Assembly (NCBI GenBank): GCA_038087875.1
Contig: CM075987.1
Location: forward strand, 21,516,001 to 21,580,000
From: Malacoraja senta
Lineage: Eukaryota
Direction: 5' to 3'
Length of the DNA stretch: 64,000 nt
Of the stretch, positions 29,428 through 54,469 are shown one piece after another (the first letter of the stretch is position 1; each line of letters begins with the position of its first letter). The notes under the pieces were generated by a model. The model searched no databases. It was given only the letters and a program-made list of their open reading frames with translations, and had not been told where the DNA came from. A program made the position numbers and the translations under genes.

Positions 29428-29688
<261 letters not shown>

Positions 29689-30550
29689 TAACCCACAACA
29701 ATGTTACATTTTTAGTATAATTTATACACATGGGTTATTTTCTTTTTTCCTATGACTTGAAACTACAGCATACAGTTTAAAAGATGTAAGCTGTGTGAAC
29801 ATTGGATTTTTGAGTACCAGTTGTAAATGTTATAGTTCTATTTTTGTAGTAAAGTTTGGATTTTAACCAAACCTGCTTGGCACTCGTCCAAGCTTTTCTG
29901 GAGCTTGTAATAAAATTGAAATTTTGGGTATTGATCCAGATTTGATCTCCAATTAGGAGTAAATTAATTATTCCAAGGTTTGGCACAAATAGGGACACTC
30001 ATTGTTTTGGAGGGTGAGTTTTCTGTATTGGCTAATGTGCCAAATTGCTCTATCAGAAACTCATGGGTAGAGGACACGCCTTCTATGTTGAGTTAGCAGA
30101 CAAGTCTACTCTAGTTGTGGTGTTCGAGTCTTTGAAAGTCAAGATTCATTACGTGTTCTCGCTCAAATAATAATGCATTGGTATTTCGCCTATTGTGGAT
30201 GGTTTAAGGTAGTAAATTTGAAGTAAATGAGATTTGATTTTTGTGCAGGTCAGGCAGAATTTTATATTAGTATAGGCATTTTGTATTAGGACCATTATTC
30301 ATTTGCTGCTGGTGTTTTGGGGAAATTACTCGGTGAATTGTCCACGTTAAATTATTTCTATTTTTCAATACACATGGTGCACCGGATTCAGAATTGCTTT
30401 TTGTATAGTTACGCTACGAGTAATGGGTCTTGCAATAGTTATGACAACTTTGTATGAGGTGATTTTAGTTTGCTCTTGCCCAGGTTTTGCTTTCAAAATT
30501 TTGACGCCCCCTGCTTCTTAATTGTGTTAATCACAGAAGACAACTAATAG

Positions 30551-30685
<135 letters not shown>

Positions 30686-31314
30686 TGACCAATCAGTGGA
30701 TATAGACTAAGAAGATGCATGTTAAACAAAAACAGAAAATTGTGGAAAAAATTAGCGGGTCGGGCAGCATCTGTAGAAACATTCTTATTGTTATGGGTGG
30801 CCTTTTGGTTTAACTTAAGATTGGGAATTAAAGTTAAATTTCTGCAAGTTAATGGAGAACTGAACACTATCTTCTGATTGACATTTGTTTCCTTTGAGAA
30901 GTACTTCATACTACTCGCAAGTTGTTTACAAGCTAAATGTCCAGTCCTATGTCTTTTGGCTCCATTAATTTATATTATGGACATTGATTTGTCTTTAATG
31001 TAGAGTTTTATAGAGAGGGTGATCAGTGATTTGTTTTTTAATAATTCTAGTACTGCTATGGTGCATTGTATCTAAAATAGTTTGCAACTGCTTGTGAGGT
31101 TGCTTCTGGTCCTTGAAGGGCTTCCTTTTATACTTATGTTTAAATTTGAAGAATTGTGTTGCAAGGGATGGAAAGGATCATGTACAAACTTGATTGTTAA
31201 ATTTAATTTTGCTTTTAATATTGTTTTATAGTGCTGATTGAACTATGTAGATTAGGTACTTTATTTAATAGAGCCTGCAGAATGCATCAGAGCACATATT
31301 AGATGCTCTGGTAA

Positions 31315-31731
<417 letters not shown>

Positions 31732-32185
31732 TAAGAGCTAAAGGATTTCTGCTTTGCAGACAGCTGACCCACAGGGAACTTGGCTTTCTATACAAAATAG
31801 CATGTTTGCCAGTTGTCGATCATAAGTATCCCACGTTGGCTACAGCTGATCAGTAGTCTGGCTATTGCTGGACTCCTCTTCTCCCTATGCCCCACCCCAA
31901 TTCAGTCACCATGGTTGACAGTCGTTTTGAATTCTAGATGTTAAAACATTTAATTACTAGCTGCTTTGCTTCAGCTGAATTTGCCAATAGCTCCTTAATC
32001 TGTCTCAGCTGCAGTCACTGCTTTGTTAAACTATTACAGTAGCAAGCTTGTATTTGAATGATTATCATTTGATGCTGTAAATGTGTTGCATCAGCTTCTG
32101 CTTTATTTTACTTTGCACTGAACTCTATGTTAATTTAAAAAAAAATTGTGTAGTCCCATTATTGAGGTTAACAATGTATTCCCAG

Positions 32186-32332
32186 GTTCCAGACATGGAA
32201 GATGAAGAAGGAGATGGTGAAGATGAAGATGAGGAAGAGGAGGAGGGTTTGGAGGACATTGATGAAGAAGGAGATGAGGATGAAGAGGAAGATGAGGAAG
32301 AGGAGGAGGAAGGGGAAGAGGAAGAGGCAGAG
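32186..32332 (+). CDS. set: set coding exon 7 (acidic tail)
   Basis: VPDMEDEEGDGEDEDEEEEEGLEDIDEEGDEDEE...EAE; AG/GTAAG. Confidence 0.95.
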
Positions 32333-32511
32333 GTAAGATCTGTTTGCTTCTGGTGCTTATGCTTCATGCTTTTTCTCTGCACTAAATGTCGACATCAAAA
32401 TTTACCATTAAGCTCGTGTCCTGGAATAGAAATATTTAAAGTTGCTCAGTTATCAGTTGCTCTGGAGCAGAGTTTGGCATTTGTACTTACTTTTGTTCTT
32501 TTTCTTTTTAG

Positions 32512-32535
32512 GAGGAGGAAGGCGAAGATGACTGA
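32512..32535 (+). CDS. set: set coding exon 8 (last)
   Basis: EEEGEDD*; exons total 834 nt = 277 aa + stop. Confidence 0.93.
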   Translation, partial: EEEGEDD

Positions 32536-33536: not shown

Positions 33537-36500
33537 TAATATCTGACAATTACCGTCCAAATTGTTGTTCAAAAGTGGCCATTCCAAATTAATTTTTTTG
33601 CATTGAATATTCTTTATAACCAAATAAGTTACAAAAGTTGAAAACAAGTCGAAAACCAGTCATGTCATCTGCTGAATGTGATTTTATTTTTGGTATTGCA
33701 ATTTGATATGCAATTTATTTAAATGCAGTATAGGCATAAGAGCAATTAATGTATTTGGTCCTACTATTGTACACTAAGTGTTTCTAGCCTGGTCTGTGTT
33801 CAAATATATGTAAACAGCCCAAATGTGTGTAATTAGATTCCTTTTCTGTATTTAATAGATATTAGATTGTAACTAAAACAGAATAAGATTGCAACTTGGC
33901 ATTCCCTTTACTCAAGCAGGTCCAGTGCTGCATTGCAAGTTTGATAACCATATTCTGCATTGGACAGTTGGCTAATTAATGGTGTCTCTTAAATTCCAAG
34001 ATTTGTTTTGACTTCTAGTTAAGTTTAAGTTGTGTGTTGTCTTGGCAATAGCTATATATCTGATGGCTTGTTTTGTTGATCTAAAATTCGCCATGGGTAC
34101 CATGCCAACTGCGATTAGCCCCATTTTACAGATTGTGTATAGATAATTATCTGAACCTCAGTTGGGCTTGACTATTGAATTTGAATTAATGGTACAATAC
34201 ATATACTGGATTTGATGTGTTCTTGAATACATTTTTTTCTGGTTATGTTATTCGTGATTTTTTTCATTTGGGATTCAATTATCCGATCAGTAATGTGACA
34301 CCACTGGGAGCTTAGTTTTCAAAATCCTAAATGCAAGTATTTTAAGCTCAGTTAGTTTAATTTTCTTGTTGCTATTTCATGAATTTATTTTTTTCGTACT
34401 AAATAATAACCATTTTGAATTGCTATTGTGCAGTGAAAAGGTTGGCCTCCGAATACCAAACTGTTTTGTGGTTTGAACTTGTCCCAATTCCATTAATCCT
34501 GATTCATGCCGTTTTGGTTGGTTTTTTTATTTTTTGTTTTTTTTTATTTTGCGTTGACCTTTTCCCACTTGTTTGACTTTTCAATTGCTGAGTGGGAAAT
34601 TATATCACTTGCATTTAACGGTTATAAAATAGGCCATTATGTATCGCTATACTGCCTTGTTCCTAAACCTTGCCAGAATGGTGCCTAAATTTGGCTTTGT
34701 ATATTTGTTCTGCAAATGATCTACATTTCAATGAAATTGCAACAGTATTATGAGAATATCTGCTTAACACCTGCCCAGTCTCCCTTAGACAGTATATAAC
34801 TGGAGCAACTAATGACAGTTTCACGGGTACAAATTAAATTTCTGCTGGTGTGTAGTATATCTTCAGGAGTATTGTACATTAGCATGTTTTTCCCCCACTG
34901 GGGATATACATTTTTTTTAAAGAATCCTTCAGTTGAGGCTGTCTTTGCCACTCCATTGTTGAAGGATAATTGTGGTCAAGCCCCTCAGCAAGCTTTACCA
35001 GCCATACCATTTGTCTTCATTCGGCAACTTAATGGAACAAAATAATAATTCGACCACCAGCTAGCAGAAGGGATATGTTCCTATAATTTATGGTTCTGGA
35101 GGTATTTTAATAAAGATGGTATAAAATTTACTGATAACCAGAGCTGTCTAGATTTTTGGAATTTGTTTACATGTCTGTCCTGGCATGTAACATCTTTTTG
35201 CTTGATGTTCTGGAGAGGAAGGTGTATAAACAATATTTTAGAATATTCCACTGGTTTGTAGACACCCATGTACTGGGGTTTGTTTCACATGGCAGCCTGA
35301 GGTGTCGGGACTTCATCTTTAAAACTTTGTTTTTTAAACAAATGGTTCTCATCTGTCCTGTTATCAACAATAAAGTTTGTATACATGTTTTGCCACAGTG
35401 CTGTACATTGTCTTTACTGCTCTGAATGTACAATGCCAATAGCATTATCCAATATGTTAGCTGGACACTAAGTCGTTTAATATTTGACATAACTTTGTCA
35501 TTTAGCTAACGAGAATATTTTGCTGTTGATAGCTTCGGATAGCAGCAATCAGTGACCAAAATTGCTTTTTTACTGCATTTTGAGAATTGGCCAATGGCTT
35601 TTGATAGAACTATAGTTGAGACTTATCAACATTAGGTCAGAAAAGAAATCCATCCTAAGAAATCAAGCACTGTTTCTCTAAAGCGAGATGACTGTCCCCT
35701 CAAAACGAGATGACTGTCCATCTCAAGGGGTTATCCATGAATAAACTTGTTTCAAACTGCTTTGGAACGGTGTGTGTAATGTACATTGTTTAAATCTAAA
35801 GTACAATTCATTTCTGTCACTAGAAATGGTGCTCAACTGCAGAGAACTATAAAATCCAATGAAAGGCAAACACCAGGAACTATTCATGAAGGGGATTCTG
35901 CAAATTGATTGAAGATTTGTTATTGTCATGTTCTTAATTTTGCCTGTGGAATTGATGGTCTCCTAACTTGAATATATATGAAAATAGATGATAATTGCCT
36001 GATCAGCCTAAAACCAATCTCTTTGTTCTCTAGTGTTGATCTTGTGTCCAATGCTGTGGAGTCCTAAAGTACTATATTTTTGTTATTGATTTGTCAACTT
36101 CCTAAATTATTTCAAATGTGATGGCCCACGTCAGAATAAACTGGCAACAAAGTGATGCTGGAACATATTTGTTGAAAGTAATGTATATTTCCTAACATTG
36201 TAGTTTGTGCTAGAGTTCTGATTTCTTTCAAAATAGTGGGGAAGAAGAGGAAGAAAAATACTTTCACTGAGCCCTACCACTGACTCAACATCAAAAGAGT
36301 AGTGGTAGGGCTACTCTTTGGGTGTAAAACACTTTCATCTTGTCTAAACATTTCCTGTATTAAAAGGGTCTGTTTTTGTCAAATATGACCACAGCTAAAA
36401 ACTAGTTTTATCCTTGTGCCACATCGCCAGTGGTGGTGGCAAGAGTAAAATCTAGTTTCATAGAGGTCCACAATAAGAGCATTTTTTTATTATTCCCATT

Positions 36501-36731
36501 CCCTTTTTAATTCATGACAGACCTTTCAGCTAATGAACATTAAAAGTTGTCAAACAACATTTAAATGTGTAAGAACTGCATATGCTGGTTTAAACCGAAG
36601 ATAGATACAAAAAAGCTGGAGTAACTCAGTGGGACAGGCAGCATCTCTAGAGAAATTTTCATCTTGTGAAAGCATAGTCAATTATTCATCAAACAATGTT
36701 TATTTTTAATTATAAAAATTAAACATGGATT

Positions 36732-36885
36732 TTATTGTTGGTATGACTTGGGCACCATAAGAAGTGTAGCAGCAAAGTTCTCTTGCAGAAGTCTGTCTAT
36801 AATCAGGGCAATAAATGTCTCTTCAGATTCTTCAAATTCTTTATCTGTAACGTGTTGAGGCCAAATATTGGGCTGAAATGACCAC
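36732..36885 (-). CDS. Secreted cereblon-like CULT-domain protein, last coding exon
   Basis: Polypyrimidine tract and atcag| acceptor, then WSFQPNIWPQHVTDKEFEESEETFIALIIDRLLQENFAATLLMVPKSYQQ*, continuing the CULT motif SH(I/L)G-W-x-F...F-x-(A/G)-L. Confidence 0.8.
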
Positions 36886-37439
36886 CTGATGAAACGAACA
36901 ATCCACAAACATGAAACAAAAAGTGAAGAAAGCAAACAGCATTAACCCCTCTTCCTGACCATTATACAATAGCAACAGTAGTGACGAGCTTTGCATATTC
37001 GTGATCAAAAGTTGAGACCAGGCCAAAGGAAGAGATCTGAGAAAGTTGGAGAAAGATATAATTTAGAATCAAAGAATGAGCGGAAGGGTTCCAGAACTTG
37101 AAATGTGGACAGCTATATGGATGACTAAACCCGATAGGATTTTAAAAAAGTGTTGTTCCAGAGCCTAGCTTTGGGCAAATTTACATGGAGGGTTGTATCT
37201 TGGGATAAGACCATGAAGATAGTTACAGACTGGAAAAATTGAAGTATTGGTAAATTCGTAGCTGAGTGGTTGGAGAGCATAAATTTTAAGTGAAAGATAT
37301 CTGCTACAGCCCCAGAAATCATGGACCTCTCCCCATATTCCAGGAGCCATCACAACAAATGTTACCATCAATGACAAAATTGACCATCACTTTAACACAG
37401 CACAATTCAAGAAATGGGTACTTCAAGGTCTCAAAACTC

Positions 37440-38410
37440 AAAGATAGAAGTGCTGAAGTAACTGGGTCAGGCAGCTTCTCTGGAGAACATGGATGGGTGA
37501 CATTTTGGGTCAGACAGATTGTGGTGGGGGAAAGGGGGGGCGGGGGATACAGCGAGGGGGTGTTTTGATAGGTAATAATATGGTTCAACAAAGGCCAGAG
37601 ATGAAAAGACAGTGGAATGAAAATGAATTGTGAAGGCAGGAAGAAAGGAGGGGGAAAGGGGAGAAAATGGGTGTAAATCCAAGTGGAGGGGTTGGGCAGG
37701 CAGGATAGATAGAGAAATTGAGAGTTGGGATAGCGTCTTTGCAAGAGGGAGGAGGTGTATCCAGACAGATCTGTTGCATCAGCTACTAGATGATGCCTTT
37801 GATTCTAGTACATCCTAGATGTCATCTTTAGTAAAATATAATCTGCGTTTGGTGTTCCCGATGTGGCCTCCTTTATATTAGCGGGACCAAGCATAGACCT
37901 GCACTCAGTTTGCCAAGGCCTGCTGGATCACCCAGTTGCTAACCATTTTAACACTTTACCCCCTCCCATACTGACTTTCCATGATAGGCCTGCATTGACA
38001 GAGTGAGGCCACGTGCAAGCTGGAGAAACCACCTCGTTCTGCTTGTAGCTTACAACTTAAATGGTATGAACTCCAGTTGTATGTAACTAACTCAAACAAT
38101 CACTATTTATTTATCTATTTCCTTCCCCCTCTTTTCCCTATGCCCCACCTGAATTCACACCCATTTCTCCTATTCCCCAGTCTCTTCACCTGAATTTCCC
38201 TAACTTCACAATTCTTACCACTTCAATTGTTATCTCAAACTTTCTTTTCATCTCTGGCCTTCATCTGCCTATCACCCCGTCCTCACCTGTATCTGTTTGG
38301 CTTTGTCGTGCCCCCACCTCGCTTCCAGCTTTTTTTCCCCATTCATCCCGACGGACAATCTGAAGAAGAATTACTCCAGCAGTGTCTTTTGTAAACCAAC
38401 ATCTCTAGTT
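37440..38410 (+). mobile_element. Degenerate Penelope-like element (GIY-YIG remnant with inverted upstream terminal repeat)
   Basis: 37810-38080 resembles decayed GIY-YIG coding sequence (C-S-R-C-G-L-L-Y-I, H-F-N, Q-S-E-A-T..K-L-E); 37440-37750 is an inverted copy of the downstream terminal repeat. Confidence 0.65.
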
Positions 38411-38429
38411 CCTTATATCTACAAAACTC

Positions 38430-39115
38430 AATCCGTCAGCTTTGATCCCCATCGCATATATTTCTGAGACATGGATGACTAGTTTTACCAGGGAGTACAA
38501 ATACCTTGGAGTGTACCTGGACAGTAAACTGGACTGCTCCAGGAACGTTGAGGCCCTGTACAGGAAGGGACAGAGCCGGCTGTACTTTTTGAGAAGACTC
38601 CGCTCCTTCGACATCTGCACTAAGATGTTCTACCAATCGGTGGTAGCCATGCCATGTTCGCTGCCGTGTGCTGGGGCAGCAGGGCGAAGGGGTGCGGACT
38701 CCAATAGGATCAACAAACTCATCAGGAAGGCTGGGGGCGGAGTTGGATTCATGGTGGTCTTGGAGGGGAGGATGCCCCTCAAACTGGAGCATCCTGGACA
38801 ATACAGCTCACCCCTCCATGACACACTGGTCAACTGAGGAGTACCTTCAGCAACAGACTGGTTCCACCAAGATGCAGGACAGAACACCACAGGAAATCCT
38901 TGTTCCCTGTGGCTATCAAACTTTACACCTCCTCCCCCTTCTGTCGTGGGGTAGACTGGACTGACTCCCGTCCCTCCCTCCCTCCCTCCGTCTCAATCTT
39001 TGCACATCACCCATCCCTTTACATTCGTCACTTTAATTTCATGTAGTTTGTTGTTTTTTTTTAATGATCGTTGGCAGATCGATTTCCCTCCTGGGATAAA
39101 TAAAGTTCTATCGTA
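38430..39115 (+). mobile_element. Rex1/L2-like LINE 3' fragment
   Basis: EYKYLGVYLDSKLDCSRNVEALYRKGQSRLYFLRRLRSF, then 3' tail gggataaataaagttctatcgtatc. Confidence 0.8.
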
Positions 39116-39179
39116 TCATACCTTAGCAGATAAAGTCAGTGAGTTGTGTATGGGTGCAGGAGGTAGCACCAATGCAGTT

Positions 39180-40391
39180 GTCAAATGTGGACACATTGGT
39201 GATCATTTTCCAATGTTCTATAGATTCAGGATCAGTTCCTGTGGATTGGAGGGTAGCTAATGTTATCCTACTTTTTAAGAAAGGCAGGAGAGAGAAAACA
39301 GAATTATAGACCAGTTAGCCTGACATCGGTGGTGGGGAAGATGCTGGAGTCAATTATAAAAGATGAAATAGTGGGCACATTTGGATAGCAGTAGTCCGAG
39401 TCAGCATGGATTTACGAAGGGGAAATCATGCTTGACTAATCTTCTGGAATTTATTGAGGATGTAACTGGGAAAATGGACAAGGGAGAGCCCAGTGTACCT
39501 GGACTTTCAGAAAGCATTTGATAAGGTCCCATATAGGAGATTAGTGGGCAAAATTAGAGCAGATGGTATTGGGGGTAGGGTAGGCATGGATAGAAAATTG
39601 GTTGGCAGACAGGAAACAAAAGTAGGGATTAACGGGTCTTTTTCAGACAGGCAGTGACTAGTGGGGTACCGCAAGGCTCGGTGCTGGGACCGCAGTCATT
39701 TACAGTATATATTAATGATCGAGGTGAAGGGATTAAAGTAACATTAGCAAATTTGCAGATGACGCAAAGCTGGGTGGCAGTGTGAACTGTGAAGAGGATA
39801 CTATATATGAGGATGCAAGGTGACTTAGACAGGTTGGGTGAGTGGGCAGATGCAATTTAATGTGGATAAATGTGAGGTTATCCACTTTGGGGGCAAAAAC
39901 AGGAAGGCAGAGTATTATCTAAATGGTGTCAAGTTGGGAAAAGGGGACTGTCATAAGGCGGGACTGTTATATATTGATAGAATGGAGGGGCTGAGCATGT
40001 ATACTCTGAATTTAGAAGGATGAGAGGTGATCTTATTGAAACATAAGATTATTAAGGGTTTGGACACGCTAGAGGCAGGAAATGTTCCCGATGTTGGGGG
40101 AGTCCAGAACCAGGGGCCACAGTTTAAGAATAAGGGGGTAAACCATTTAGTACGGAGATGAGGAAAAACATTTTTACAGAGAGTTGTGAGTCTGGAATTC
40201 TCTGCCTCAGCTCAGAAGGCGGCTGGAGGCCGGTTCTCTGGATGGTTTCAAGAAAGAGTTAGATAGAGCTCTTAAAGATATGCGGAGAAGGCAGGAACAG
40301 GGTGCTGATTATGGATGATCAGCCATGATCATAATGAATGGCGGTGCTGGCTCGTAGGGCCGAATGGCCTACTCCTGCACCTATTGTCTAT
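39180..40391 (+). mobile_element. CR1 LINE, truncated and degenerate
   Basis: RT motifs (YLDFQKAFDKVP, KFADDAKL) with frameshifts and CR1 3' UTR. Confidence 0.88.
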
Positions 40392-41421
40392 AAGCAAAAT
40401 TTGGGATGCCTTTGAGAATTGTCAATCCGTGCACCATGAACACAAAGCAGCCAGCACTGGGAAAGCACAGAATTTCCATGTTTCCTTACCACATAGGACA
40501 TACCACACCAGTTGCCAAGTAACTTATTAAGTCACACTTGGGCACGTGGAGAACATGCAAATTCCATACATACAACACTGGAGCTCAAGATTGAACCTAG
40601 GTCCCTACAGGGTTTCTTCCATTATGTGGCCATAAGACCACCTACCAAAGACCACCCTTCAGGCACCACCTGTCCCTTTCTATGGAAGAGTCCGTGGTTC
40701 CAACATTGGTATTTCGGCTACCCTCTAAACCCATAAAATTGTAGTGCAACCAAGTCCTCCATCCTGAAAGGATGCTCAAGAAGAAGACACCAACTTGATG
40801 CGTTATATTAGAAAATATGAAAATAGGAGCAAGATTGATCTGTCCCATGCCTCAGCTCCTATCTGCCATTTCCCCATAGCCCCCCAATTCCATGATTTTT
40901 ATAAAGAAAGCCCCAATGATCGTGATTCTATAACTTTCCAGGGCATTCAATTTTAAATGGCATTGAATTTGTAACAAAACTCAGTTTGAGACTCTTCCAC
41001 CCATGATAATTTCTCAACATTATCCTGTATTGCTCATCTCACAATGTTAAACTCCAAAAGAATACAGATGCAACGCTTTAGCCACTTGCAAAAGGACAAC
41101 CTATAGCCAAGGGAATCTTCTTAGGATTGCCTCCAAAACTAATATATCCTTTGTTATGTTATATGTTAAGGGACCAAAACTGTATGCGGTACTTCAGGTT
41201 GGCCTCACTAACACCCTGTACAATTGTAACTCATTAAACGAGCCTGATAACATTTTGGAGATTTATGTACAAGAACACCTAGATCTTCCTTGTAAAAAAG
41301 GACACAAAGTTGCTGGAGTAACTGGGGTGACCTGCTACTTCAGCATTCAGTGTCATTTTTTGTAAACCAGCATCTGCAGTTCCGTTTTTCTAGATCTCCC
41401 CGTCTTTCACTCATTTATACA

Positions 41422-42161
41422 TCTATCTATCTATCTATCTATTATTATTATTATATTACTAAAAGTCTCGTCTTGCTTCTATCTATCTATATATGGCGTA
41501 TATGATCTGGGACCTACGCCAAACGGTACACTGTAGCCCAAACATTTATGCACCACCTTACTCAGTTTTGTCCCGCGGTCGTTCCTATAAAGTTTCATTC
41601 AGATTGATATATTTCACGAGAAATTTTACATTTTAAAACTTAAAAAGTCAAGATTTGAGAATAAATTCTTCACTCTGCAGCTATATCTTCAGCTATGACT
41701 TCACAATGCTACATTATTGCAATCTCAGCACACTCAGTCCTGCCAGGTGAGGGAGGGATGAGGGGGGTGGGTGAAGAGGGGGGGAGGGAGTGCTGGGGGA
41801 GGTTGGGGAATAGAGGGAGAGGAGGGTAGTGGGGGAGGTGAGAAGAGATAGTGGGGGGGGGGGAGGAGATAGGGGAAGGTGGGAGGTGGGGGATAGAGGG
41901 ATAGGAGGGGGGGTAAGGAGTGACTGAGGGTAGGGGAAAGGAGATGGACGGAGGGATTGGGGAGGGGAGGAGGAGAGGGGAAAGAAGAGAGAGGGTGAAT
42001 ATGAGGGTGAGGTAGTTGGGGGATGAGGGGAAATGAGCTGCGCCTACGCAGTTGGGAGCTATGGGTGAGTGGTGGAATATTGCGTTGGGGGAACGGGTGA
42101 GTGGTGGAATATTGCATTGGGGGAACGGGTTGCGTTGGTGCATCTGTAGAAGTTAGTCTAG
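41422..42161 (+). mobile_element. Putative non-autonomous Helitron
   Basis: A|TC start with (TCTA)n, CTAG|T end, no TSD, internal G-rich tract; the expected 3' hairpin is missing. Confidence 0.5.
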
Positions 42162-43785
42162 TTCTTTCTATTTAGAGGTCTGCCTTTTGATTCCTCTTAA
42201 CAAAGTTCAAAACTAACACTTTTCCATAATAAACTAATTTGTCAGGTTTTTACTCTTTGAATCTATATCCTGTTGCATCAGTTTAGTTTGTCACATGTAC
42301 CGTGGTACAGTGAAAAGCTTTTTGTTGCGTGCTAACCAGTCAGCAGAAAAAACAATACATGATTACAATCAATCCATTTACAGTGTATAGATATATGATA
42401 AGGAAATAACGTTTAGTGCAAGATAAAGCCAGCAAAGTCCAGTCAAGGGTAGTCAGAGGGACATCAAAGAGGTAGATTGTAGTTCGTCACTGCTCTTTGG
42501 TTGTGGTAGGATGATTCAGTTGCCTGATAACAGCTTGGAAGAAACTGTTCCCAAATCTGGTGGTGTGCACTTTCGCACTTATATACCTTTTGCCTGATGG
42601 GAGAGGGGAGAAGTGGGAGTGGCCAGGGTGCGACTCGTCCTTGATTATACTGCTGGCCTTGCCGAGGCAGCGTGAGGTGTAAATGGAATCAAGAGAAAGG
42701 AGGTTGGTTTGTGTGATGGCCTGGGCTGCGTCCACAATTAGCTGCAATTTTTTTACGGCCCTTGATGAAGCTGTTCCCAAACCAAGCTGTGATGTATCCT
42801 GATAAAATGCTTCCTATGGTGCATCTGTAGAAGTTGGTGAGAGTTCTAGGGGACATGCCAAACTTCCTAAGGCCTTCTAAGGAATCAGAGGCGTAGGTGT
42901 ACCTTCTTGGTCGTTGCTTCAATATGGGTGTTCCAGGGGAAGTTGTTGGTGATATTGACCAAGGAATTTGAAGTTTTCGACCATCTCTACTTCAGCACCA
43001 TCAATGCAAACTCAGGTTTGCATCCTGAATTCGATCACTATCTCCTTTGTCTTGCTGACATTGAGAGAAAGGTTGTTGTATCGACACCAGAATACGAGGT
43101 TCTCAATCTCCTTCCTGTACTCCGTCTCATCATTATTTGATATCCGGCCCACAATGGTGGTGTCGTCTGCGAATTTGAAAATTGAATTAGATTTGTACAT
43201 AGCTGCGCAGTCGTGGGGTGTACAAGGATTAAGAAGGGGGCTGAGAACACATCGTTGCGGAGCCCCCGTGTTGAAGATTATTGTGGAGGATGATTTGTCC
43301 CCTATCCTCACTGATTGTGGTCTGTTGGTCAGGAAGTCGAGGGTCCAGTTGCAGAGATGAGTGCTGATCCCAAGTCCTGCGAGTTTGATGATAAGCTTGG
43401 ATGGTATAATGGTATTGAAGGCAGAGCTGTAGTCTATGGAGTCTGACGTAGGTGTCTCTCTTCTCTCAGTATTCTAGGGATGAGTGTAGGGCGATGGCAT
43501 CATCCGTGGACCTTTTGTGGTGGTAGGCGAACCGCAGTGGGTCAAGGCCGCTGGGTAGCCTCTCAAAGCATTTCATGATGGTGGATGTCAAGGCCACTGG
43601 ACGGTAGTTGTTTAGGCATGAGGTCTTGCTTTTCTTCGCCACTGGGATGATGGTGGTCTTCTTGAAGCAGGAAGAGTAGGGGGAGTAGGGGGAGATTAAA
43701 GATGTCCGTGAATACTCCCGCTAGCTAGTCCGTGCAGCTACTAAGGACACGGCTAGGAACTCCGTCTGGTTCAGTTGCTTTCTGT

Positions 43786-45759
43786 CAAAGATACTAGAGG
43801 AGCCAAGATAGACCACTCCTCCGAAATCCAATGGACTGACGTGTAGTACGTAACGGAACGTCACGGCCGCCATTTGTTTATGCCAAACGCAACTATGCCT
43901 CCCGCTGTGGACTCCGCTCTATCAATCCCTTGTATTGCTTTAACACACACTGTGCACAAAATTAAATTTAACTTATATATATATTTATATGAATGTGTGT
44001 TTGTGTGTGCCTGTGTGTGAGAGGCAAGTTAAGGGCCTGTCCCACCAGCATGCGATTGCATGCGTCTAGCGCGACCAAACGTGGTCACTTGAAAAATCTT
44101 GCAGTCCGAAAATCCCGCGCGCCAACGGCCTGTCGGCCTGCAGGCGCATTGAGGGTGTACGCAGCGTCCCGACGGGCGTGCGCAGCGTCTTGATGTCGTA
44201 CGCAGCGTCTTGACGCCGTTGTGCGAGAGTTGTTTTTTAAATGTGCTATATAAATAAAAGTGACTTGACTTGACATATTTCTCTAGATTCTTTCTTCAGA
44301 GAGGGAGAAGGGGGAGAGGGGAGAAGGGGAAGGGGGAAGAGAGAGAAGGGGGAAGAGAGAGAAGGGGGAAGAGAGAGAAGGGGGAAGAGAGAGAAGGGGG
44401 AAGAGAGGAGAAGGGGGAAGAGGGAGAAGGGGGAAGAGGAGAAGGGGGAAGAGGGAGAAGGGGGAAGAGGAGAAGGGGGAAGAGGGAGAAGGGGGAAGAG
44501 GGAGAAGGGGGAAGAGGGAGAAGGGGGAAGAGGGGGAAGGGGGAAGAGGGGGAAGAGGGAGAAGGGGAAGAGGGAGAAGGGGGAAGAGGGAGAAGGGGGA
44601 AGAGGAGAAGGGGGAAGAGGGAGAAGGGGGAAGAGGGAGAAGGGGGAAGAGGGAGAAGGGGGAAGAGGGAGAAGGGGGAAGAGGGAGAAGGGGGAAGAGG
44701 GAGAAGGGGGAAGAGGGAGAAGGGGGAAGAGGGAGAAGGGGGAAGAGGGAGAAGGGGGAAGAGGGAGAAGGGGGAAGAGGGAGAAGGGGGAAGAGGGGGA
44801 AGGGGGAGGAGGGGGAAGGGGGAGGAGGGGGAAGGGGGAGGAGGGGGAAGGGGGAGGAGGGGGAAGGGGGAGGAGGGGGAAGAGGGAGGAGGGGGAAGAG
44901 GGAGAAGGGGGAAGAGGGAGAAGGGGGAAGAGGGAGAAGGGGAAGAGGGAGAAGAGGGAAGGGGAGAAGGGGGAGAAGGGGGAGAAGGAGAAGGGGGAGA
45001 GGGTGAAGGGGGAAGAGGGAGAAGGGGAGAGGGAGAAGGGGAGAGGGAGAGTGGAACGATAGCACGTTATAACGCGCAGCCGTCCCATTCCGACCAAAGA
45101 TTATAGAGCAGAGCTCCTCTAGTATCTTTGATTCCGACCGCCGCCGCCGAACCCCCCGCCCCACCATTGCACCCAAAGATTATAGAGCGGAGTTCTATAA
45201 TCTTTGATTGCACCCTTCTTTACGGCGGGCTTGTGATCTTTGTTTTTGATGTCTCGACAATTCGAGGGACATAATCAGTAACAGCCGCCGCATTCTCGGA
45301 CTCGAATCGGGCCATATTTTGGAGACCCCTGCCTTACAAGAACAAAACCAAAAATGTACAGAAGTGTTAAAATTATTGTCTTTATTATTGTGGTAAGTAA
45401 AGATCTATTAAAAATAATTCTAATAACTTTCTAATGTACCGGCAAACCTAGTTTCCCAATGGCCGTTGATGGGAGAACAGAAAATAACATCTTCAGGACA
45501 GAATATCGACAGAAAATAATAATAATATTTTCTCACCTTTCTTTTTTATTGGGGAACCTAAAGAATGACAGGTCGGGTCATCTACATTTACGATTAGAGC
45601 AATTGATAGCAGAGCAGTGAGATGAAGATTTAGATGTGGACGCCATGACAGTATGCGGGCAGCCCTATAAAATGCCCTATAAAATGGCGTCGACAATCAC
45701 ACACGTCATACTACGCTTTTTTCGCTGAGTGGCGCATCTTGGCTCCTCTAGTATCTTTG
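43786..45759. mobile_element. Non-autonomous DNA transposon, 24-bp perfect TIRs, 8-bp TSD
   Basis: caaagatactagaggagccaagat (43786-43809) and its exact reverse complement (45736-45759); flanks ctttctgt / ctttccat. Confidence 0.88.
44299..45050 (+). repeat. Pure polypurine minisatellite, about 16-bp unit gagggagaagggggaa
   Basis: About 750 bp made almost only of G and A with tandem unit variants. Confidence 0.95.
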
Positions 45760-46315
45760 CTTTCCATGGGATTATCCTCAGGAACGCCAATCTAACCTCT
45801 GGTACAGTCACCCTGGGGGGAACACATCGGAGTCTGACGGATCAGGTATATCCGCTCTGTTGGCCTATTGCTTGAAGCGAGCATAGAAAGCATTCAGTTC
45901 ATCGGGTAGGGTTGCACTATCACCAATGATGTTGCCTGACTGTGCTTTGCAGCCAGTAATCTTATTCATACCTTCCCACATTCTCTGTGTGTCTGAGTGT
46001 ACATGTCTGTGTGTACATGGTCTCCCACTTCATTAGTGTTAACAACAAATGGGCATACCTGATGCCTGCTCCTGTCTCCAAGTCATTAATACCAGTAGTA
46101 ACTAATTATGGCCAAAAACTGATCCCTGGGTACTCCACGAATTATATCCTTCCAGAGCCCCATGTATTCACATTTACATTCTGTCCCCCTCTCTCTGCCA
46201 TTCTCTCCCTCACATACAATCAGAGTGTTTTGAATTAGAGCAGGTTTGTGAAGGATGGAAGTTGGTCAAGTGGAAAAAGGAGTTATATTTTGCCTTCACC
46301 CTCGAAGGTGGAATG

Positions 46316-46608
46316 TTCTTTGTAAAACATCACATCAGCAGACAATATTTGGAGCTGATTTTAAAAAATTGAATAAGGGGCATGGAGAAATTGAGGAGTG
46401 TGGTTGAGACATGTCAAAAAAATAGTGGAGTAGGCTGGGAGGGTGTTTGAGACTTTGCTTAAATCAAATTAATGCACCAAACACCCGCACAGCCTACTCC
46501 ACTATTTTTGACAGGTCTCAACCACACTCCTAAATTTCTCCATGTCCCTTATTCAAATTTTTAAATCAGCTCCAAATATTGTCTGCTGATGTGATGTTTT
46601 ACAAAGAA
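46316..46608. repeat. Long inverted repeat (arms about 130 bp, spacer about 28 bp)
   Basis: 46316-46449 is a near-perfect reverse complement of 46478-46608. Confidence 0.92.
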
Positions 46609-46654
46609 TTATAATCTTAACATCTACCGAATGTTTCCTCTCAGAAATGGGTAT

Positions 46655-46980
46655 ATTGAGTTTGAGTTTAATTTATTGTCATGTTTACCAATGCACAAAG
46701 ACAATACTTGATTACAATCGAGCCATCCACAGTGTACAAATACATGATAATGGGAATAATGTGAATAACATTTAGTGCAAGCTAAAATCCAATAAAGTCT
46801 GATCAAAGATAGTCAGAGGGTCTCCAATGAGGTAGATAGTAGCTCAGGGCTGCTCTCTAGTTGTTGGTAGGATGGTTTAGTTGCCTGATAACTGCTGGAA
46901 AGGAACTGTCCCTGAATCTGTCCGTGTGCATTTTCATACTTCTATACCTCTTGCCCGATGGGAGAAGGGAGAAGAGGGAG
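46655..46980 (-). mobile_element. Rex1/L2-like LINE 3' end fragment
   Basis: Matches 42281-42620 (gattacaatc...cacagtgta...gttgcctgataac...tctatacct). Confidence 0.7.
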
Positions 46981-47349
46981 ATAATTTCCCATTCTGTCTT
47001 TCTAGCCCTAGGAATCCTATAATTATCCTAAAATAATAATATTATTTGCACAATCTATAATGCCCTGGAGCCATTTGCCAGAGCCTATTTGCCAAATCCT
47101 CGAACTCTTTACACAATAATTTAGGGAGTATCCTCATCATACAAAAAACACCGTTTCAAGAAATCCATAATTGGATTTGCGTTTGCCTTGTCAACAATAT
47201 ATGTATGCACACAGGCACAAATCGCGTTTGATCCATCGATAATCGACGACTTACAAGAAAATTTGCTTTTAATGCATTTGCACAAGTACAATATTTTAAA
47301 GCGCTGTAACTCTGATATCGAAATGAAGAGACGGAAACAAGCTACTTGC

Positions 47350-47713
47350 CTAAATGGCTGTGACATCTGTGACACGTTGCCACTGTCCAAGAATATCCAG
47401 GAAACCAGGAGACCTGGTCGTCCGCCGGCCAGTGCTTGTGGACGGCAGCTCGCTTGAAAGTGAGCACCTGGAAACGAAGGCCATGCGGGTTCTGGAAGAG
47501 CTGCACCGGGACCCTTCGCTCACCGATCAGCGTGTCGTTCCTCTGAGCTAAAGCCAAGGGACTGGCCACAAATTTAAGGTCCCGACTGACAGCCACCTCG
47601 TAACCACATGACCTGCACAGCAAGAGCTCATCCCCCGACTCCTCTTCCTTCCCTTGACTGGCGTTATGACCGCTCACGGCGGAGACCGACATCAACAGCA
47701 ACATCCACCACAT
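47350..47713 (-). CDS. Secreted cereblon-like CULT-domain protein, main coding exon (exon starts at 47743; 3' boundary 47350 or 47346)
   Basis: Signal-peptide-like MWWMLLLMSVSAVSG, CRSC, FQNPHG, SWFPGYSWTVATCHRCHSHLG; in-frame TAG upstream of the ATG; acceptor ctctcag| at 47744-47745. Confidence 0.88.
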
Positions 47714-48649
47714 CTTCCAGGCCGCTTCCCACTCCTACCCCACCTGAGAGAAAAAGTAAAATAAAACGTGTTAATTTCCCCAGAATAAAATTACTTTCAA
47801 ATACACATTTTTTATCGCCGTAGCCAACAAATTATTTCAAATTTGCCTGGGATCCATGGTACTGTAACGCATTTTGCAGCACATATTTTAATTCTCCAGC
47901 CTTTTTAACTATAGCTTTCCTGCAACTTACATTTAAGTGTCTTATAGAAGAAACACATAGCAATGTAAGAGCCTCGGACATTTATCTCCTCCACCCCCTA
48001 CTGGCTGGAGGATTCTATACACTTTCTGCTGTTGAGACAGAATCATTTCATTTCACGGGTTCCATTAATATCACATCCCACTTTTCAAGGTCGTCTAGAA
48101 ACAAAATTCCTTTCAAACATGCAAGGGAAACTTGCATTCGCACACAGCCATGCGGGTTCTGGAAGAGCTGCACCGGGACCCTTCGCTCGCACGTTGCAGC
48201 TAATTAACTACTTTAGTAATTTAGAAAATGGGATAGCCATTTAGCATTCAGGATGACATAAACAGTTAGTATAATAATTATATACAAAATATCTTGTATC
48301 ATAACTTTGGCTGAGAAAGAAATGTTGTTTGGACATTGGGGAAAATTTCTTGCTTTTTATTCTTCAAAATATTGTTCCTGAATCTTACATATCTGCCCGT
48401 AAAGGTAGATGAGACACGAGAACACACAAAATAGGAGCTTTGAGCCTGTTCCGTCATTCACCAATATGTGTGCTGCTTTTCTACCTCAGCCCCATTTTCC
48501 GGCACTATTCACACATCAACTCGATTCCCCTAATGTTTAAATAATCTATCAATTTCTGTTTTCAAAGATTACAATGCCTGAGCATCCAGGGTAGAGAATG
48601 CACCACTATCTGAGTGAAGAAATTCCTTAATCCTGAATGGGGTCCTTCC

Positions 48650-51297
48650 TAAACAATGCAAAAGCAAGGAGAGACATTAGCTTGGATGCTGTAGAATCGG
48701 TATGGGTAGAACTGCAAAATAGCCAAGGGCAGAAAACACTTGTTGGAGTGGTAAACAGACCACCAAACAGCAGTAGGGAGGATGGGGATAGCATCAAGCA
48801 GGAAATTAGGGATGTGTGTAGCAAAGGAACAGCGGTTATCATGGGTGACTTTAATCTACATATAGATTGGGCCAACCAAATTGATAACAGTGCCGAGGAG
48901 GAGGATATCCTGGAATGTATGTAAGATGGGTTTTTAAACCAATACATAGAGGAACCGACCATCCTAGACTGGGTATTGTGTAATGAGGAAGGATTAGTTA
49001 GCGATCTTGTTGTGCAAGGCCCCTTGGGGAACAGTGACCATAATATGGTGGAATTCTGCATTAGGATGGAGAGTGACACGGTTGATTCAGAGATTAGGGT
49101 CCTGAACTTGAATAAAGGAAACTTTGAAGGTATTAGACAGGAATTGGCTAGGATAGACGGGCAAATTATACTTAAAAGGTTGACAGTGGAGATGCAATGG
49201 CGAAGATTTAAAGACCGCATGGATGAACTCCAGAAATTGTTCATCCCTGTCTGACGATATAATAACACTGGGAAGGCGGCACAACCGTGGTTGAAGAGGG
49301 AAGTCAAGGATAGTGTTAAAGCCAAGGAAGAGGCATATCAATTGGCCAGAAGAAGCGGCAAACCAGAGGACTGGGAGAAATTTAGAACAGAGGAGGACAA
49401 AGGGGTTAATTAAGAGGGGGGGGGGAAGAGCATGAAAGAAAGCTTGCAGGAAATAAAACTGCCGAAAAGTTTCTATAGGTATGTAAAAGGAAAAGATTAG
49501 TGAAGACAAATGTAGGTTCCTTACAGTCAGAGACAGGTGAATTCATAATGGCAAACAAGGAAATGGCAGAACAGTTAAACGAGTACTTTGGTTTTGTCTT
49601 CACTAAGGAAGACACAATCTCCCGGAAATATTAGGGGACTGAGGATCTAGTGGGAGGGAGGAACTGAAGGGGATCCTCATTAGTCAGAAAATGGTGTTAG
49701 GTAAACTGTTGTGACTGAAGGCAGATAAATTGCCAGGGCCAGATGGTCTGCATCCCAGAGTACTCAAGGAGGTGTCCCTCAAAATCGTGGATGCATTGGT
49801 GATCATTTTCCAATGTTCTCTCGACTCTGGATCAGTTCCTATACACTGGAGGGTAGCCAATGTAACTCCACTTTTTAAGAAAGGAGGGAGAGAGAAAACG
49901 GGGAGTTATAGATCAGTTAGCCTTACATCGGTAGTGGGGAAGATGCTGGTCAATTATTAAAGATGTTATAGCAGCACATTTGGAAAGCAGTGATGGGTTC
50001 GGTCAAAGTCAGCAAGGATTTATGATGGGGAAATCATGCTTGACTAATCTTTTGGAATTTTTTGAAGATGTAACAAGTAGAATGGATAAGGATGTGGATG
50101 TGGTGTATCTGGGCTTTCAAAAAGCCTTTGACAAGGTCCCACACAAGAGATTAGTGTGCAAAATCAGAGCACATGGTATTGGGGGTAGGCTATTGACATG
50201 GATGGAGAACTCGTTGGCAGACAGGAAAGCAAAGAGTAGGATCTAACAGGTCCTTTTCAGAATGGCAGGCAGTGACCAGTGGGGTGCCACAACGCTCAGT
50301 GCTGGAACCCCAGTTGTTTACAATTTATATTAACGATTTAGACGAGGGAATTAAATATAACATCTCTAAGTTTGCAGATGACACAAAGCTGGGTGGCATT
50401 GTGTGCTGCGAGGAGGATGCTATGAGGCTGCAGGGTGACTCAGATAGGTTGGGTGAGTGGGCAGAAGCATGGCAGTTGCAGTATAATGTGGATAAATGTG
50501 AGGTTATCCACTTTGGTGGCAAGAACAGGAAGGCAGATTATTATCTGAATGGTGCCAGATTAGGAGATGGGGAGGTGCAATGAGACCTGGGTGTGCTTGT
50601 ACATCTGTCACTAAAAGTAAGCATGCAGGTACAGCAGGCAGTGAAGAAAGCCAGTTGGCCTTCATTGCGAGAAGATTTGAGTTTAGGAACAAGGAGGTCC
50701 TACTGCAATTGTACAGGGCCCTGGTGAGACCGCACGTGGAGTATTGCGTGCAATGTTGGTCTCCTAATTTGAGGAAGGACATTATTGCTATTGAGAGAGT
50801 GCAGCATAGGTTCACAAGGTTAATTCCCAGGATGGCGGGACTGACGTACGATGAAAGAATGGGTCGACTGGGCTTGTATTCACTGGAATTTAGAAGGTTG
50901 AGAGGGGATCTTTAGAAACATATAAAATTTAGAGGATTGGACAGGGTTGATGCAAGAAAAATGTTCCCGACGTTGGGGGTGTCCAGAACCAGGGGTCATA
51001 GTTTAAATATAAGGGGCAGGCCATTTAGGACTGAGATGAGGGAAAACCTTTTCACCCAGAGAGTTGTGAATCTGTGGAATTCTTTGCCACAGAAGGCAGT
51101 GGGGGCCAATTCATTGCATGTTTTCAAGTGAGAGTTAGATTTAGCTCTTAAGGCTAATGGAATCAATGGATATGCGGAAAAAGCGGAACGGGGTACTGAT
51201 TTTGGATGATAAACCATGATCATATTGAATGGCGGAGCTCGTTCGAAGGGCTGAATGGTCTACTCCTGCACCTATTTTCTATACTTCTATGTTTCTA
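48650..51297 (+). mobile_element. CR1 LINE, 5'-truncated, frameshifted (endonuclease and RT remnants)
   Basis: IMGDFNLHIDW, LGNSDHNMVEF, PGPDGLHPRVLK, KFADDTKL, CR1 3' tail ctatgtttctat. Confidence 0.92.
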
Positions 51298-52199
51298 TAA
51301 TGTGCCTCCAGTCTTCGGCTCTTCATTCAAAACAAACCCCTTGTATCTAGCCTAACGCCCTGCAAGAATTTTGTAAGCCAGGAAAGTTCACAGTTATGGT
51401 GAACATCGTGCAGCTGACAGGTTGTGGTAAATATTTGGTTCCTGTTGAATGGGATGAGACTGATTGTGTGAGGCACTTTAAAGAAGAGGAAGCGTGAGAA
51501 TGTTGACATTGATTTTTATGCAGTAACGTCGTGTTGGTGCTGCTGTTTTGAAAATAATAGGAGAATGTACGTGGAGATCTGTTCAACAGACATCAATACT
51601 TGATTCTCTCTACTAGGCATGGCCAAGGTGATAAATACACATTTGTTTCCTTTGCTTGGATATTATAATCTAACAGAAATCAGTACTCAATTTCCCCTTT
51701 TTATAGCACTTACCCATGCAATTTTGGGACACAAAAGCTCTTCCCTTCCTGCTAACAAGGGACTTAATCATCCTTTCTAGGTAAAGCAAGAACGCACGTG
51801 CACCACTGCCCTTGGGACTTAATACTATTGTCTTCTTTTCTCTCTACAGAAATACTGTACTTTACTGTTTCAATGTGTCTCCTCTTTTTCCAACCATTTT
51901 TTTTAAAGTGACCAGTCTACTCTGGTAGACTTATTTGGTGGATGTTTTGGTTCGCATCCTGTCACAAATATTCCTCCTGTTCCCTCTACCCTTAGCCCTA
52001 TTTGCGACTTACAACACCTTTCCCCCCTTTTTTTTCACTTCTGATGGAGTCCTTGACCTGAAATGTTGACTGATTCTCTTTTCATGGGCGATGCCTGACC
52101 CTCAGGTGACTTCCAGCTTTTTCTTATTTTTTAACATTATATAATTTTTAAAAATGTTGTTTTTGTTTGTTGTTGAGTGCCATTTGGGCCTCACTGTTA

Positions 52200-52735
52200 T
52201 ACTTTAGTTTAGTTTATTATCACGTGTACCAAGGTACGGTGAAAAGCAAAGGGTGGTGGATGTATGGAACAAAGGGTAGTGGATGTATGGCCAGAGGAGG
52301 TAGTTGAGGCTGGGACCATCCCAACGTTTAAGAAGCAGTTAGACAGGTACATGGATAGGACAGGTTTGCAGGGATATGGACCAAAAGCAGGCAGGTGGGA
52401 CTAGTGTAGCTGGGACATGTTAGCCGGTGTGTATCACTCTGTCTCTAAAAGCTTTTGTTTGGTGCTAACCAGTCAGCAGAAGGACAATACATAATTCCAA
52501 TCGATCCATTTACAGTGTATAGATACATGATAAGGGAATAACGTTTAGAGCAAGGTAAAGCCAGCAAAGTCCGATCATGGATAGTCCAAGGGTCATCAAA
52601 GAGGTAGATAGTAGTTCAGCACTGCTCTCTGGATGTGGTAGGATTATTCAGTTGCCTGGTAACAGCTGGGAAGAACATATCTCAGAATCTGGTGGTGTGT
52701 GTTTTCACACTTCTATACCTTTTGTCTGATGGAAG
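52200..52735 (-). mobile_element. Rex1/L2-like 3' fragment with a nested plus-strand CR1 3' piece (about 52248-52446)
   Basis: Matches 42281-42600; the nested piece is flanked by aaaagc direct repeats. Confidence 0.65.
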
Positions 52736-52789
52736 ATAAAGTTATCCTTACAGTTTTAAAAGAAAATACCTTCTAGCCATCCCAACGGT

Positions 52790-53112
52790 GTCAATCGCGC
52801 CACCTGAGCCGTTGATGAACCACACCCCAGACCGACGAGCTCAATCACCCCATCCACGCTTCGCCCCGCCCTTCGTATCGAATTGGTCGCGGCTGAGATG
52901 ACCGACACCGCGTTGTCCAATGGGCGCACGAAGCGAGCAGCCCGCGCTTTAAATTAGGGCGGGACTCGAGGGGGCGGTTAGAGTGCACGGGGTTTAAAAA
53001 TGTTTTTTAAAAAGCCGTTAGACGGTATGTAAATAGTAAAGGCTTGGAAGGGGAAAAAAATAAAATAGTAAGAAGCAGCAGGAGGAGGATAACTGACAGT
53101 ATCCGAGGCACG
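52790..53112. promoter_or_regulatory. CpG-rich promoter of pkn3, possibly shared with the CULT gene
   Basis: GC boxes in both orientations (ccccgccc about 52864, gggcggg about 52956, ggggcgg about 52971), ATTGG at 52882 and CCAAT at 52917. Confidence 0.7.
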
Positions 53113-53133
53113 ATGGCGGGAGATAGCCAACAG
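53113..53133 (+). CDS. pkn3: Protein kinase N3, probable coding exon 1
   Basis: acgATGG Kozak; MAGDSQQ|gtcagg, phase 0, similar to the short MASDAVQ first exon of PKN1 and in frame with 57881. Confidence 0.65.
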
Positions 53134-53204
53134 GTCAGGAACGGTCGCGGTGGTCTCGGGGACTGGCAGAACTCTTGAAGCGGGGACGGGTATCTCCTCC
53201 CCGA

Positions 53205-53975
53205 AGTTAGACACAAAGTGCTGGAGTAACTCAGCGGGACAGGCAGTATCTATGGAGAGAAGGAATGGGTCACGTTTCGGGTCGAGACCCTTCTTCAGAC
53301 TGAGTCGAGAGAGAGGGAGACTACTAGAGATACGGAAGGGTACAGAGCGTGTAAGGTGCGAAAAGGACTGAGCAGGGCCTGGTCGGCACTGAACCATACA
53401 ATTATGACTTTTGGACAGATATAGATAGGAAGGACGCAAAGTGCTGGAGTAAGTCGGTGGGTCATCCAGCATCTCGGGAGAGCATTGATGGATGGCGTTT
53501 CGGCTCGGGACCCTTCTTCAGACTGACCTCTCCAGGGATACTGCCTGGCCTGTCGAGTTGTTCCACAACGTTGTATTTTTATTTTGTAAACCAGCATCAG
53601 CAATTTCTTGTTTCTACTAGGTATAGGTGGCTATGGGGGGCAGATAGACAGATGGTTGAACGAAAGCCATGAATGAAAAGGAGTGAGTCACAGGATTGGA
53701 GGTAGACACAAAATGTTGGAGTAACTCAGCGGGACAGGCAGCATCTCTGGAGAGAAGGAATGGGTGACGTTTCAGGTCAAGACCCTTCTGAGTCAAAGGA
53801 TCGATGAGTTGTGAATTGTGAAGCTAGAGGAAGGAATGTAGGTGGGAACAATATATGTGCCAGTCCAGGTGGGGCATGGGGAGTGGGGGAAATAGGTTGG
53901 GGGGAGGGAAGAAGTTGAGGGGTTTGGGGTGAAGGGTTGTAATCACCTAAAATTGTAGAATACAATGTTCATACT
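53205..53975 (-). mobile_element. Cluster of Penelope-like terminal repeat fragments
   Basis: Three reverse-complement copies of the ctgaagaagggtctcgacccgaaac unit plus a purine-rich tract. Confidence 0.65.
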
Positions 53976-54469
53976 GTTGGATAGGAAGGGCAAATGGCAC
54001 CAGCCCAATCAATATGCCAATTTGGTTGGCATAGACAAGGTGGACTGAAGGGCCCGTTTCTGTATTGTGCAGCTCAATCATCCGATGAGTTTAGTCAAAA
54101 TAAAACCAGACTTGGCGACTTCCCAATTTTATAAATGGATAATGCTTAGGAGATCAGGTAGAATAAAATTGAGCTAACATTGCGCTACCCTTCCCTTCTG
54201 TGGACTTGCAACAATCCATGATATCTGCTATGCATCTATTCTAGCATCTTAATCATTGCATTATTTAATTGGGACACTTTTGGTTGGTATACTTTCAGCT
54301 GCCCATGCCTAAGTTCTAGGATTTCCTCCCTATCCAACTCTTTCATGCCTCCTTTTTTTTATTATTCTTAAATTCTACCTAATTGGAAGGAACATTTTGG
54401 TCATCTGCCTTAGTAACTCGTTTTTATAGCTTGGAAGCAATGTATTGATGGCTCCACTAACTATCCTGG

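Follow-up and report, generated by a model that had tools for sequence, protein, structure and literature searches.

Several described systems stand close to the gene reported here. Secreted stand-alone CULT proteins were set apart as group II by Lupas et al. (2015, PMC4287342), with zebrafish NP_001121712.1 as the named example. A CULT domain also stands alone in bacteria as Magnetospirillum cereblon isoform 4 (MsCI4), whilst in cereblon (CRBN) it forms the thalidomide-binding domain (TBD) and is accompanied by a LON domain and a DDB1-binding helical region. We analysed a window of 64,000 nucleotides (nt) from the skate Malacoraja senta (assembly GCA_038087875.1, contig CM075987.1, positions 21,516,001 to 21,580,000), which carries on its minus strand a stand-alone CULT gene encoding 172 amino acids (aa). 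The gene is real and intact and is, by sequence comparison, almost certainly the skate orthologue of zebrafish si:ch211-51h9.7, placing it in the secreted stand-alone family. The family was already known in 2015 and the gene is an ordinary annotated orthologue; new here are small additions, namely tetrapod members with a shared pocket change, a family-wide glycosylation sequon, a GC-AG intron and a probable shared promoter.

Compared with group II, the skate protein displays no difference of kind; both comprise a signal-like leader, a CULT domain only, two CxxC motifs, an NPxG motif and three tryptophans. It shares with MsCI4 the single domain, the Asn-Pro pair and the three tryptophans, as well as the Phe that the fish family and MsCI4 both carry at the position of CRBN H357; at that of H378 they again share Phe, whereas the skate has Val. 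MsCI4 lacks the leader, the sequon, an added strand (residues 56-63), an acidic loop (128-145) and a conserved tail, and has Y101 where the fish protein has F125. The TBD fold is held in common with CRBN, along with N351, P352, W380, W386, V388, C391, C394, H397, W400 and F402; in contrast to CRBN, the skate protein has no LON/DDB1-binding bundle, has a leader and a glycan site, and carries the replacements H357 to F, E377 to Q and H378 to V. Yippee/Mis18 proteins (PF03226) share the beta-tent fold and two CxxC motifs, but the profile check proposed in the original prediction returned scores below the gathering cut-off of 26.6 bits, with 17.2 for the Rhinoraja orthologue (P0001) and 14.6 for exon A.

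Inspection of reading frames resolved the coding region into two exons, with the following features:

47350..47743, minus strand: coding exon A, 394 nt, with the ATG at 47713, encoding residues 1-121 plus the first Gly122 base; 96% identical to P0001
36886..47349, minus strand: phase-1 GC-AG intron, 10,464 nt as assembled, donor AG/GCAAGT, containing retroelement fragments and a GA-rich repeat
36884..36888, minus strand: acceptor, where the window is one base short in a three-base run, an assembly error
36732..36885, minus strand: coding exon B, encoding W123 and F125 (W400 and F402 of CRBN), the acidic loop, the last strand, the conserved tail and the stop (36734-36732)
36699..36710, minus strand: putative polyadenylation signals read from the sequence just past the stop, ATTAAA at 36710 and AATAAA at 36704

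An in-frame stop lies nine codons before the ATG, inside exon A, and an upstream exon is therefore unable to lengthen the protein. As assembled, the exons sum to 364 + 154 = 518 nt with an out-of-frame SHLG-W junction: the GC donor splits the Gly122 codon behind its first base, the assembled acceptor adds one base before the Trp codon, and GC-AG splicing yields a 148-aa product without W123 and F125. The original prediction had joined the two exons into a protein of about 172 aa; its coordinates were right, on the minus strand, and the frame is restored by one base missing from the window. Four of 24 listed sequencing runs were compared with positions 35800-37400. DNA run X19, which contains 0.98 of the sampled words, and DNA run X21, from a relative, each have an additional C behind 36884 in the only contig that covers the site (depth 20.6/20.6 and 6.22/6.22, respectively), giving 519 nt, that is 172 aa and a stop, with HLG/W as in annotated orthologues. 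X19 is possibly the source of the window itself, and as such checks the assembly and not independent biology. Over the same 1.6 kb it differs from the window by at least eight single-base insertions and three small deletions; the window carries run-length errors of the long-read type, and further frameshifts in the same assembly deserve distrust.

Contigs of runs X3 and X2 match exon B as far as 36886; upstream of that point, where the DNA runs continue, 414 letters of X3 and 29 of X2 have no match. These breakpoints would fit splicing (394 + 20 for X3), the RNA type of both runs being a guess and X2 being labelled as probably DNA. A micro-exon or alternative acceptor was considered and rejected, as the three other AG sites up to 75 nt upstream yield no in-frame product, and neither is needed once the missing base is counted. 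The GC-type donor at 47344-47349 fits the full consensus in the window. Read-through products ending in HLGK, from other skates and a mormyrid fish (P0002, P0126, P0127, P0012), share the same intron position and phase.

Orthologues of this protein were readily found. It differs from the Leucoraja (P0125), Amblyraja (P0123) and Rhinoraja (P0001) sequences at three, four and six positions, respectively, and zebrafish NP_001121712.1, the product of si:ch211-51h9.7 (P0272), is labelled 'precursor' by NCBI. In a first protein search 17 of 22 candidates passed and the top one was 96% identical; a profile built from 13 orthologues then recovered 145 proteins from 1077 candidates, and nearly all named ones among the 120 listed were fishes. 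An unfiltered search returned 330 clusters at E values up to 1e-10. Ten of these were looked up, and those with names came from a sea star, two corals, an abalone and a sponge, plus two insect cereblon models. A tree of 29 rows, rooted at the midpoint, placed the skates and zebrafish in one jawed-vertebrate clade (support 100/99), and the ESM Atlas returned clusters of the secreted CULT family only. No mammal or bird name appeared among the 120 listed of the 145 matches or three further matches, in searches that miss distant relatives, return many unnamed proteins and involve no synteny test. Two long top matches, P0132 and P0194, were rejected as family members, being insect (moth) cereblon gene models with repeated fragments; their Trp-cage segment recurs in 22 and 4 matched stretches, respectively, probably an artefact of assembly or annotation. 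Many fish members of 165-200 aa are named 'protein cereblon' in databases, a misleading label that may confuse studies of cereblon orthology or expression in fish.

Conservation was counted in three collections: set 1 (126 rows, mostly fishes, from which the tetrapods, two Ciona sequences and a single row below 90 aa were excluded), set 2 (132 of 139 unnamed representatives, leaving out seven outside 90-340 aa, and possibly including some fragments of true cereblon or of bacterial origin) and alignment A3 (a selection of 116 full-length rows). The protein encodes the following features, with counts of 116 referring to A3:

47669..47713, minus strand: residues 1-15, probably a signal peptide; the cleavage site after G15 is a guess by the small-residue rule
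47657..47665, minus strand: sequon N17-A-S, present in most aligned cartilaginous fishes and not family-wide
47606..47617, minus strand: first CxxC (C33, C36), both invariant in 116/116 rows
47531..47539, minus strand: family-wide sequon N59-D-T, on the modelled added strand (56-63) absent from cereblon
47480..47491, minus strand: NPxG hairpin tip (N75-P76), N in 111/116 and P in 101/116
47387..47410, minus strand: SWFPGYSW with W103 (110/116) and W109 (115/116)
47363..47374, minus strand: second CxxC (C114 in 116/116, C117 in 115/116)

All the motifs listed by the original prediction are thus present, including the hydrophobic N-terminus, both sequons, both CxxC pairs, NPHG and SWFPGYSWTV. 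Its assignment of a CULT domain with matching CRBN pocket residues also holds, as exon A aligned to human CRBN at E 3.6e-8 (query 68-122 on CRBN 344-399). This alignment equates N75 with N351, P76 with P352, H77 with H353, F81 with H357, Q100 with E377, V101 with H378, W103 with W380, W109 with W386, V111 with V388, C114 with C391, C117 with C394, H120 with H397 and G122 with G399, from which it follows that W123 and F125 correspond to W400 and F402. Only 32 residues precede C33 in a frame closed upstream, which bears out the claim that the LON and DDB1-binding parts are missing. No domain besides CULT was found in the protein, which stops after residue 172 and is covered by structural matches over residues 26-160.

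The fold was modelled with AlphaFold on P0001, which stands in for the window's own protein at six differences. A first model from 13 sequences (predicted local distance difference test, pLDDT, 72) was replaced by one from 116, with mean pLDDT 89 and a predicted template modelling score (pTM) of 0.79; blocks over residues 31-160 scored 92-99, whilst the leader and tail were of low confidence. The overlay on the CRBN TBD (9odr) gave Z 15.3, with the root mean square deviation at 2.2 over 104 residues, that on MsCI4 gave Z 15.2 with a Foldseek template modelling score of 0.87, and every listed structural match, Foldseek rows included, was cereblon-type. Prediction of a homodimer from residues 27-172, which made no use of the alignment, scored 0.00 in both runs and speaks neither for nor against a dimer. 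The tri-Trp pocket is intact, as originally proposed: W123 is kept in 115/116 rows of A3, on a par with the other two tryptophans, and F125 in 107/116.

Two details of the pocket fared less well. The NPHG motif had been read as part of the cereblon pocket, and N75-P76 is indeed kept, but the His equivalent to H353 is not a family feature: position 77 is free, with H in 67/125 and Q in 48/125 rows of set 1, H in 24/131 of set 2 and Q in the three closest skates. Likewise, the Val at the H378 position is present but is no defect, since position 101 is F in 114/125 rows of set 1 (V in six), position 81 is F in 125/126, and MsCI4, whose structures with thalidomide, deoxyuridine and valerolactam are recorded in structure titles, reads NPAG with F at both the H357 and H378 positions (the equivalence of its F77 with H378 being taken from alignments). 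The fish pocket is therefore MsCI4-like, and Val101 is no sign of collapse.

Several lines of evidence are consistent with entry into the secretory route. A mean leader hydropathy of at least 2.0 over eight residues was reached by 112/118 Met-starting rows of set 1 and 84/96 of set 2, whilst the same threshold was reached within the much longer domain part by 47 and 50 rows, respectively. The skate leader, identical in P0125, scores 2.26 over eight residues, the weakest of nine members shown, and is probably a signal peptide on the proxies of hydropathy, sequon and the 'precursor' label. The N59 sequon is present in 124/124 rows of set 1 and 100/130 of set 2, where it has 17 different middle residues. 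A sequon kept with a free middle residue is the pattern of selection for a glycan and, as far as sequence can tell, is better evidence for secretion than the leader. KDEL-like ends were found in 0/126 rows of set 1 and 2/132 of set 2.

Members were also identified in tetrapods, which refines the stated range of the family, described as not occurring beyond fishes (Lupas et al. 2015, PMC4287342). These are from Discoglossus (P0102, 183 aa), Ascaphus (P0130, 170 aa) and Platysternon (P0131, a 136 aa fragment misnamed urocortin-3-like, without the leader and first CxxC). In the 29-row tree they group at 96/94 on long branches within the vertebrate clade, and long branches can attract. Both frogs retain the leader, the sequon, the four cysteines and the three tryptophans, whilst in all three proteins N75 is replaced (by E, D and D, respectively), F81 likewise (by H, H and Y) and F125 becomes Y. 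Being shared, the changes point to a modified pocket rather than to random decay, though three gene models are a slender basis. Among 272 proteins, P0235 (30% identity) was the only further one to match the tetrapod rows best. The tetrapod survivors represent a natural three-residue variant of the pocket.

Secreted CULT proteins had been noted as occurring in animals with no known function; the family was described in 2015 (PMC4287342), and beyond that work no study of it was found in the literature searched, functional or otherwise, whilst expression or proteomic records may exist. Beyond the observed gene structure, family, modelled fold and residue conservation, we infer secretion, glycosylation and a class of ligand, and give an even chance to a non-catalytic luminal or extracellular binder of imide- or uracil-like rings. 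The signal peptide would bring the chain into the endoplasmic reticulum, where N59 may be glycosylated and the domain would fold as a beta-tent pinned by four cysteines; the protein would then leave the cell or act in the secretory lumen as a small binder. The cage of W103, W109 and W123 with F125 would use backbone hydrogen bonds to hold a five- or six-membered ring bearing a carbonyl and an NH, be it a cyclic imide, a lactam or of the uracil type, whilst N75 of the hairpin would grip a substituent outside the cage. As the LON/DDB1-binding part is missing, ubiquitylation is impossible, and a ligand would be carried, sequestered or flagged. The imide binding, the off-target action of thalidomide analogues and the disulfide-bonded CxxC pairs suggested by the original prediction are plausible.

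Our favoured ligand, offered as a tentative guess, is the C-terminal cyclic imide of aged extracellular proteins broken at Asn or Gln. According to two reports (bioRxiv 10.64898/2026.08.28.747849; PMC13366208), the cereblon cage holds cyclic imides by a pair of hydrogen bonds with their carbonyl and NH groups, and CRBN has C-terminal aspartimide and aminoglutarimide as physiological ligands. A second candidate, which we put forward more doubtfully, is a free metabolite of the uracil or uridine type: MsCI4 binds uracil and uridine, and a widespread ligand, also found outside cells, has been argued for (Lupas et al. 2015, PMC4287342).

A number of points weigh against an imide or uracil binder. 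H357 helps human CRBN to hold degron backbones, and in the skate protein it is replaced by F; the tetrapod proteins have dispensed with N75. The skate leader is short and was judged by hydropathy in place of a signal-peptide predictor, and the fold model is that of another skate. Neither an uptake receptor nor an effector domain is apparent, and we know of no clearance receptor for imide marks. Sand fly salivary cDNAs cited by Lupas et al. as support are called 'putatively secreted' in their source (PMC2714351), and PabSP126, by size the likeliest of them to be the CULT member, was reported to have no predicted glycosylation sites. Hydrolysis removes cyclic imides with a half-life of about 24 h (PMC11974815). 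The pocket also takes steroids, a linear acetyl-type motif and other chemotypes, as reported in bioRxiv 10.64898/2026.08.28.747849, and since the same cage accepts several chemotypes, its conservation cannot name the ligand. Data on binding, secretion, localisation or knockout of any member were not found in the literature searched, a search that lay mostly outside subscription journals and supplementary expression tables.

The alternative that survives best, though still unlikely, is that the ligand held by the cage is a side chain or a modification (Pro, an aromatic or an acetyl group) of one particular secreted or cell-surface partner, the protein serving as an adaptor or chaperone with the glycan strand, acidic loop and tail as a docking surface. 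Conserved positions specific to the family lie outside the cage (S51 in 106/116 rows, Q71 in 107/116, F146 in 114/116, P167 in 93/105), the tail is conserved although the monomer model gives it low confidence (blocks 74 and 55), and the MsCI4 pocket can be occupied by a linear acetyl-type motif (bioRxiv 10.64898/2026.08.28.747849). Against a dedicated partner, none is known, and Lupas et al. (2015, PMC4287342) reason that a cage so nearly identical in bacteria and animals speaks for a small ligand of wide occurrence more than for a linear motif.

A role in carrying or buffering 3-keto steroids outside the cell, with the A ring in the cage, appears improbable. A secreted member would encounter steroids, but the family extends to sponge, corals and molluscs, animals presumably without vertebrate corticosteroids. 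A single preprint (bioRxiv 10.64898/2026.08.28.747849) describes cortisone, hydrocortisone and testosterone binding to the tri-Trp pockets of human CRBN and MsCI4; the A-ring carbonyl pairs with the backbone NH of W380/W79, and affinities are given in micromolar. No better placed is a small luminal thiol enzyme, akin to the related MsrB and GFA folds, in which the CxxC pairs would be redox-active or disulfide-bonded. Exactly four cysteines are present in 98/103 full-length rows of set 1, the lumen is generally oxidising, and enzymes occur among the beta-tent relatives (Lupas et al. 2015, PMC4287342); however, the four coincide with the zinc site of all CULT domains, and neither an extra conserved cysteine nor a clear catalytic residue accompanies them, H120 varying in set 2 (H in 104/129). 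The proposed ring binding would be the same with disulfides as with zinc. Finally, a frameshifted pseudogene, or a weak GT donor at 47345 (AA/GTAGCT) that would preserve the frame by adding Lys before W123, is suggested by the 148-aa product that the window's own letters give with the GC donor but is largely refuted and very improbable, as X19 and X21 both carry the extra base, X19 has seven other single-base insertions among the rows listed, and all aligned full-length skate, ray and shark proteins read HLGW except the alternative isoform P0008 and the truncated P0016.

The original prediction placed the gene between set and pkn3, and its neighbours broadly agree with this. A SET-like gene on the plus strand (coding sequence about 24824-32535) lies tail to tail with the CULT gene, with a NAP match (E 0.0022) under the curated cut-off, and a PKN gene on the plus strand displays three HR1 matches above the cut-off. 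The PKN gene we take to be PKN3, and human presumably has no CULT gene between SET and PKN3. Further features of the locus are as follows:

52651..53550, no strand assigned: CpG island (observed/expected CpG up to 1.35, with CCAAT and GC boxes), probable two-way promoter of the CULT gene (minus) and the PKN gene (plus)
52771..52900, minus strand: candidate non-coding first exon of the CULT gene, donor AAG/GTATTT at 52771, 5' end approximate
48147..48188, minus strand: 42 nt within intron 1 that repeat exon A bases 47480-47521 exactly

Exon A begins at an acceptor (47743) and so requires an exon upstream. The candidate start of PKN, an ATG at 53113, is followed by a donor in phase with an exon at 57881, and about 340 nt separate it from the candidate CULT donor at 52771; the two genes thus probably form a head-to-head pair sharing one promoter. 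The 42-nt copy lies 667 nt from the original and includes the window's own His77 codon, and represents either a recent local duplication or an assembly artefact. Retroelement fragments are present at about 38400-40400, 42500-43700, 48600-51300 and 54400-57600. Within the large intron, a GA-rich tandem-like repeat of about 750 nt (44300-45050) gives long low-complexity open frames on both strands.

The gene raises the question of which natural ligand keeps the cereblon cage conserved without the ubiquitin system. At its broadest, and as a speculation we consider doubtful, the family may be an extracellular reader of protein-ageing marks from sponges to fishes, in which a glycosylated CULT domain would bind cyclic imides at the C-terminal ends of long-lived secreted proteins that have broken, and would flag them for clearance, an outside-cell counterpart of CRBN quality control; the tetrapod pocket would have changed (N351 to D/E, F357 to H/Y, F402 to Y) before the gene was lost from most lineages, and the protein would be a second thalidomide binder in zebrafish teratogenicity assays. 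A single-domain, secreted and probably easily expressed vertebrate member suits the displacement assays that exist for MsCI4 and CRBN. If thalidomide analogues bound it, zebrafish toxicity studies would have an unconsidered binder, one apparently lacking in mammals.

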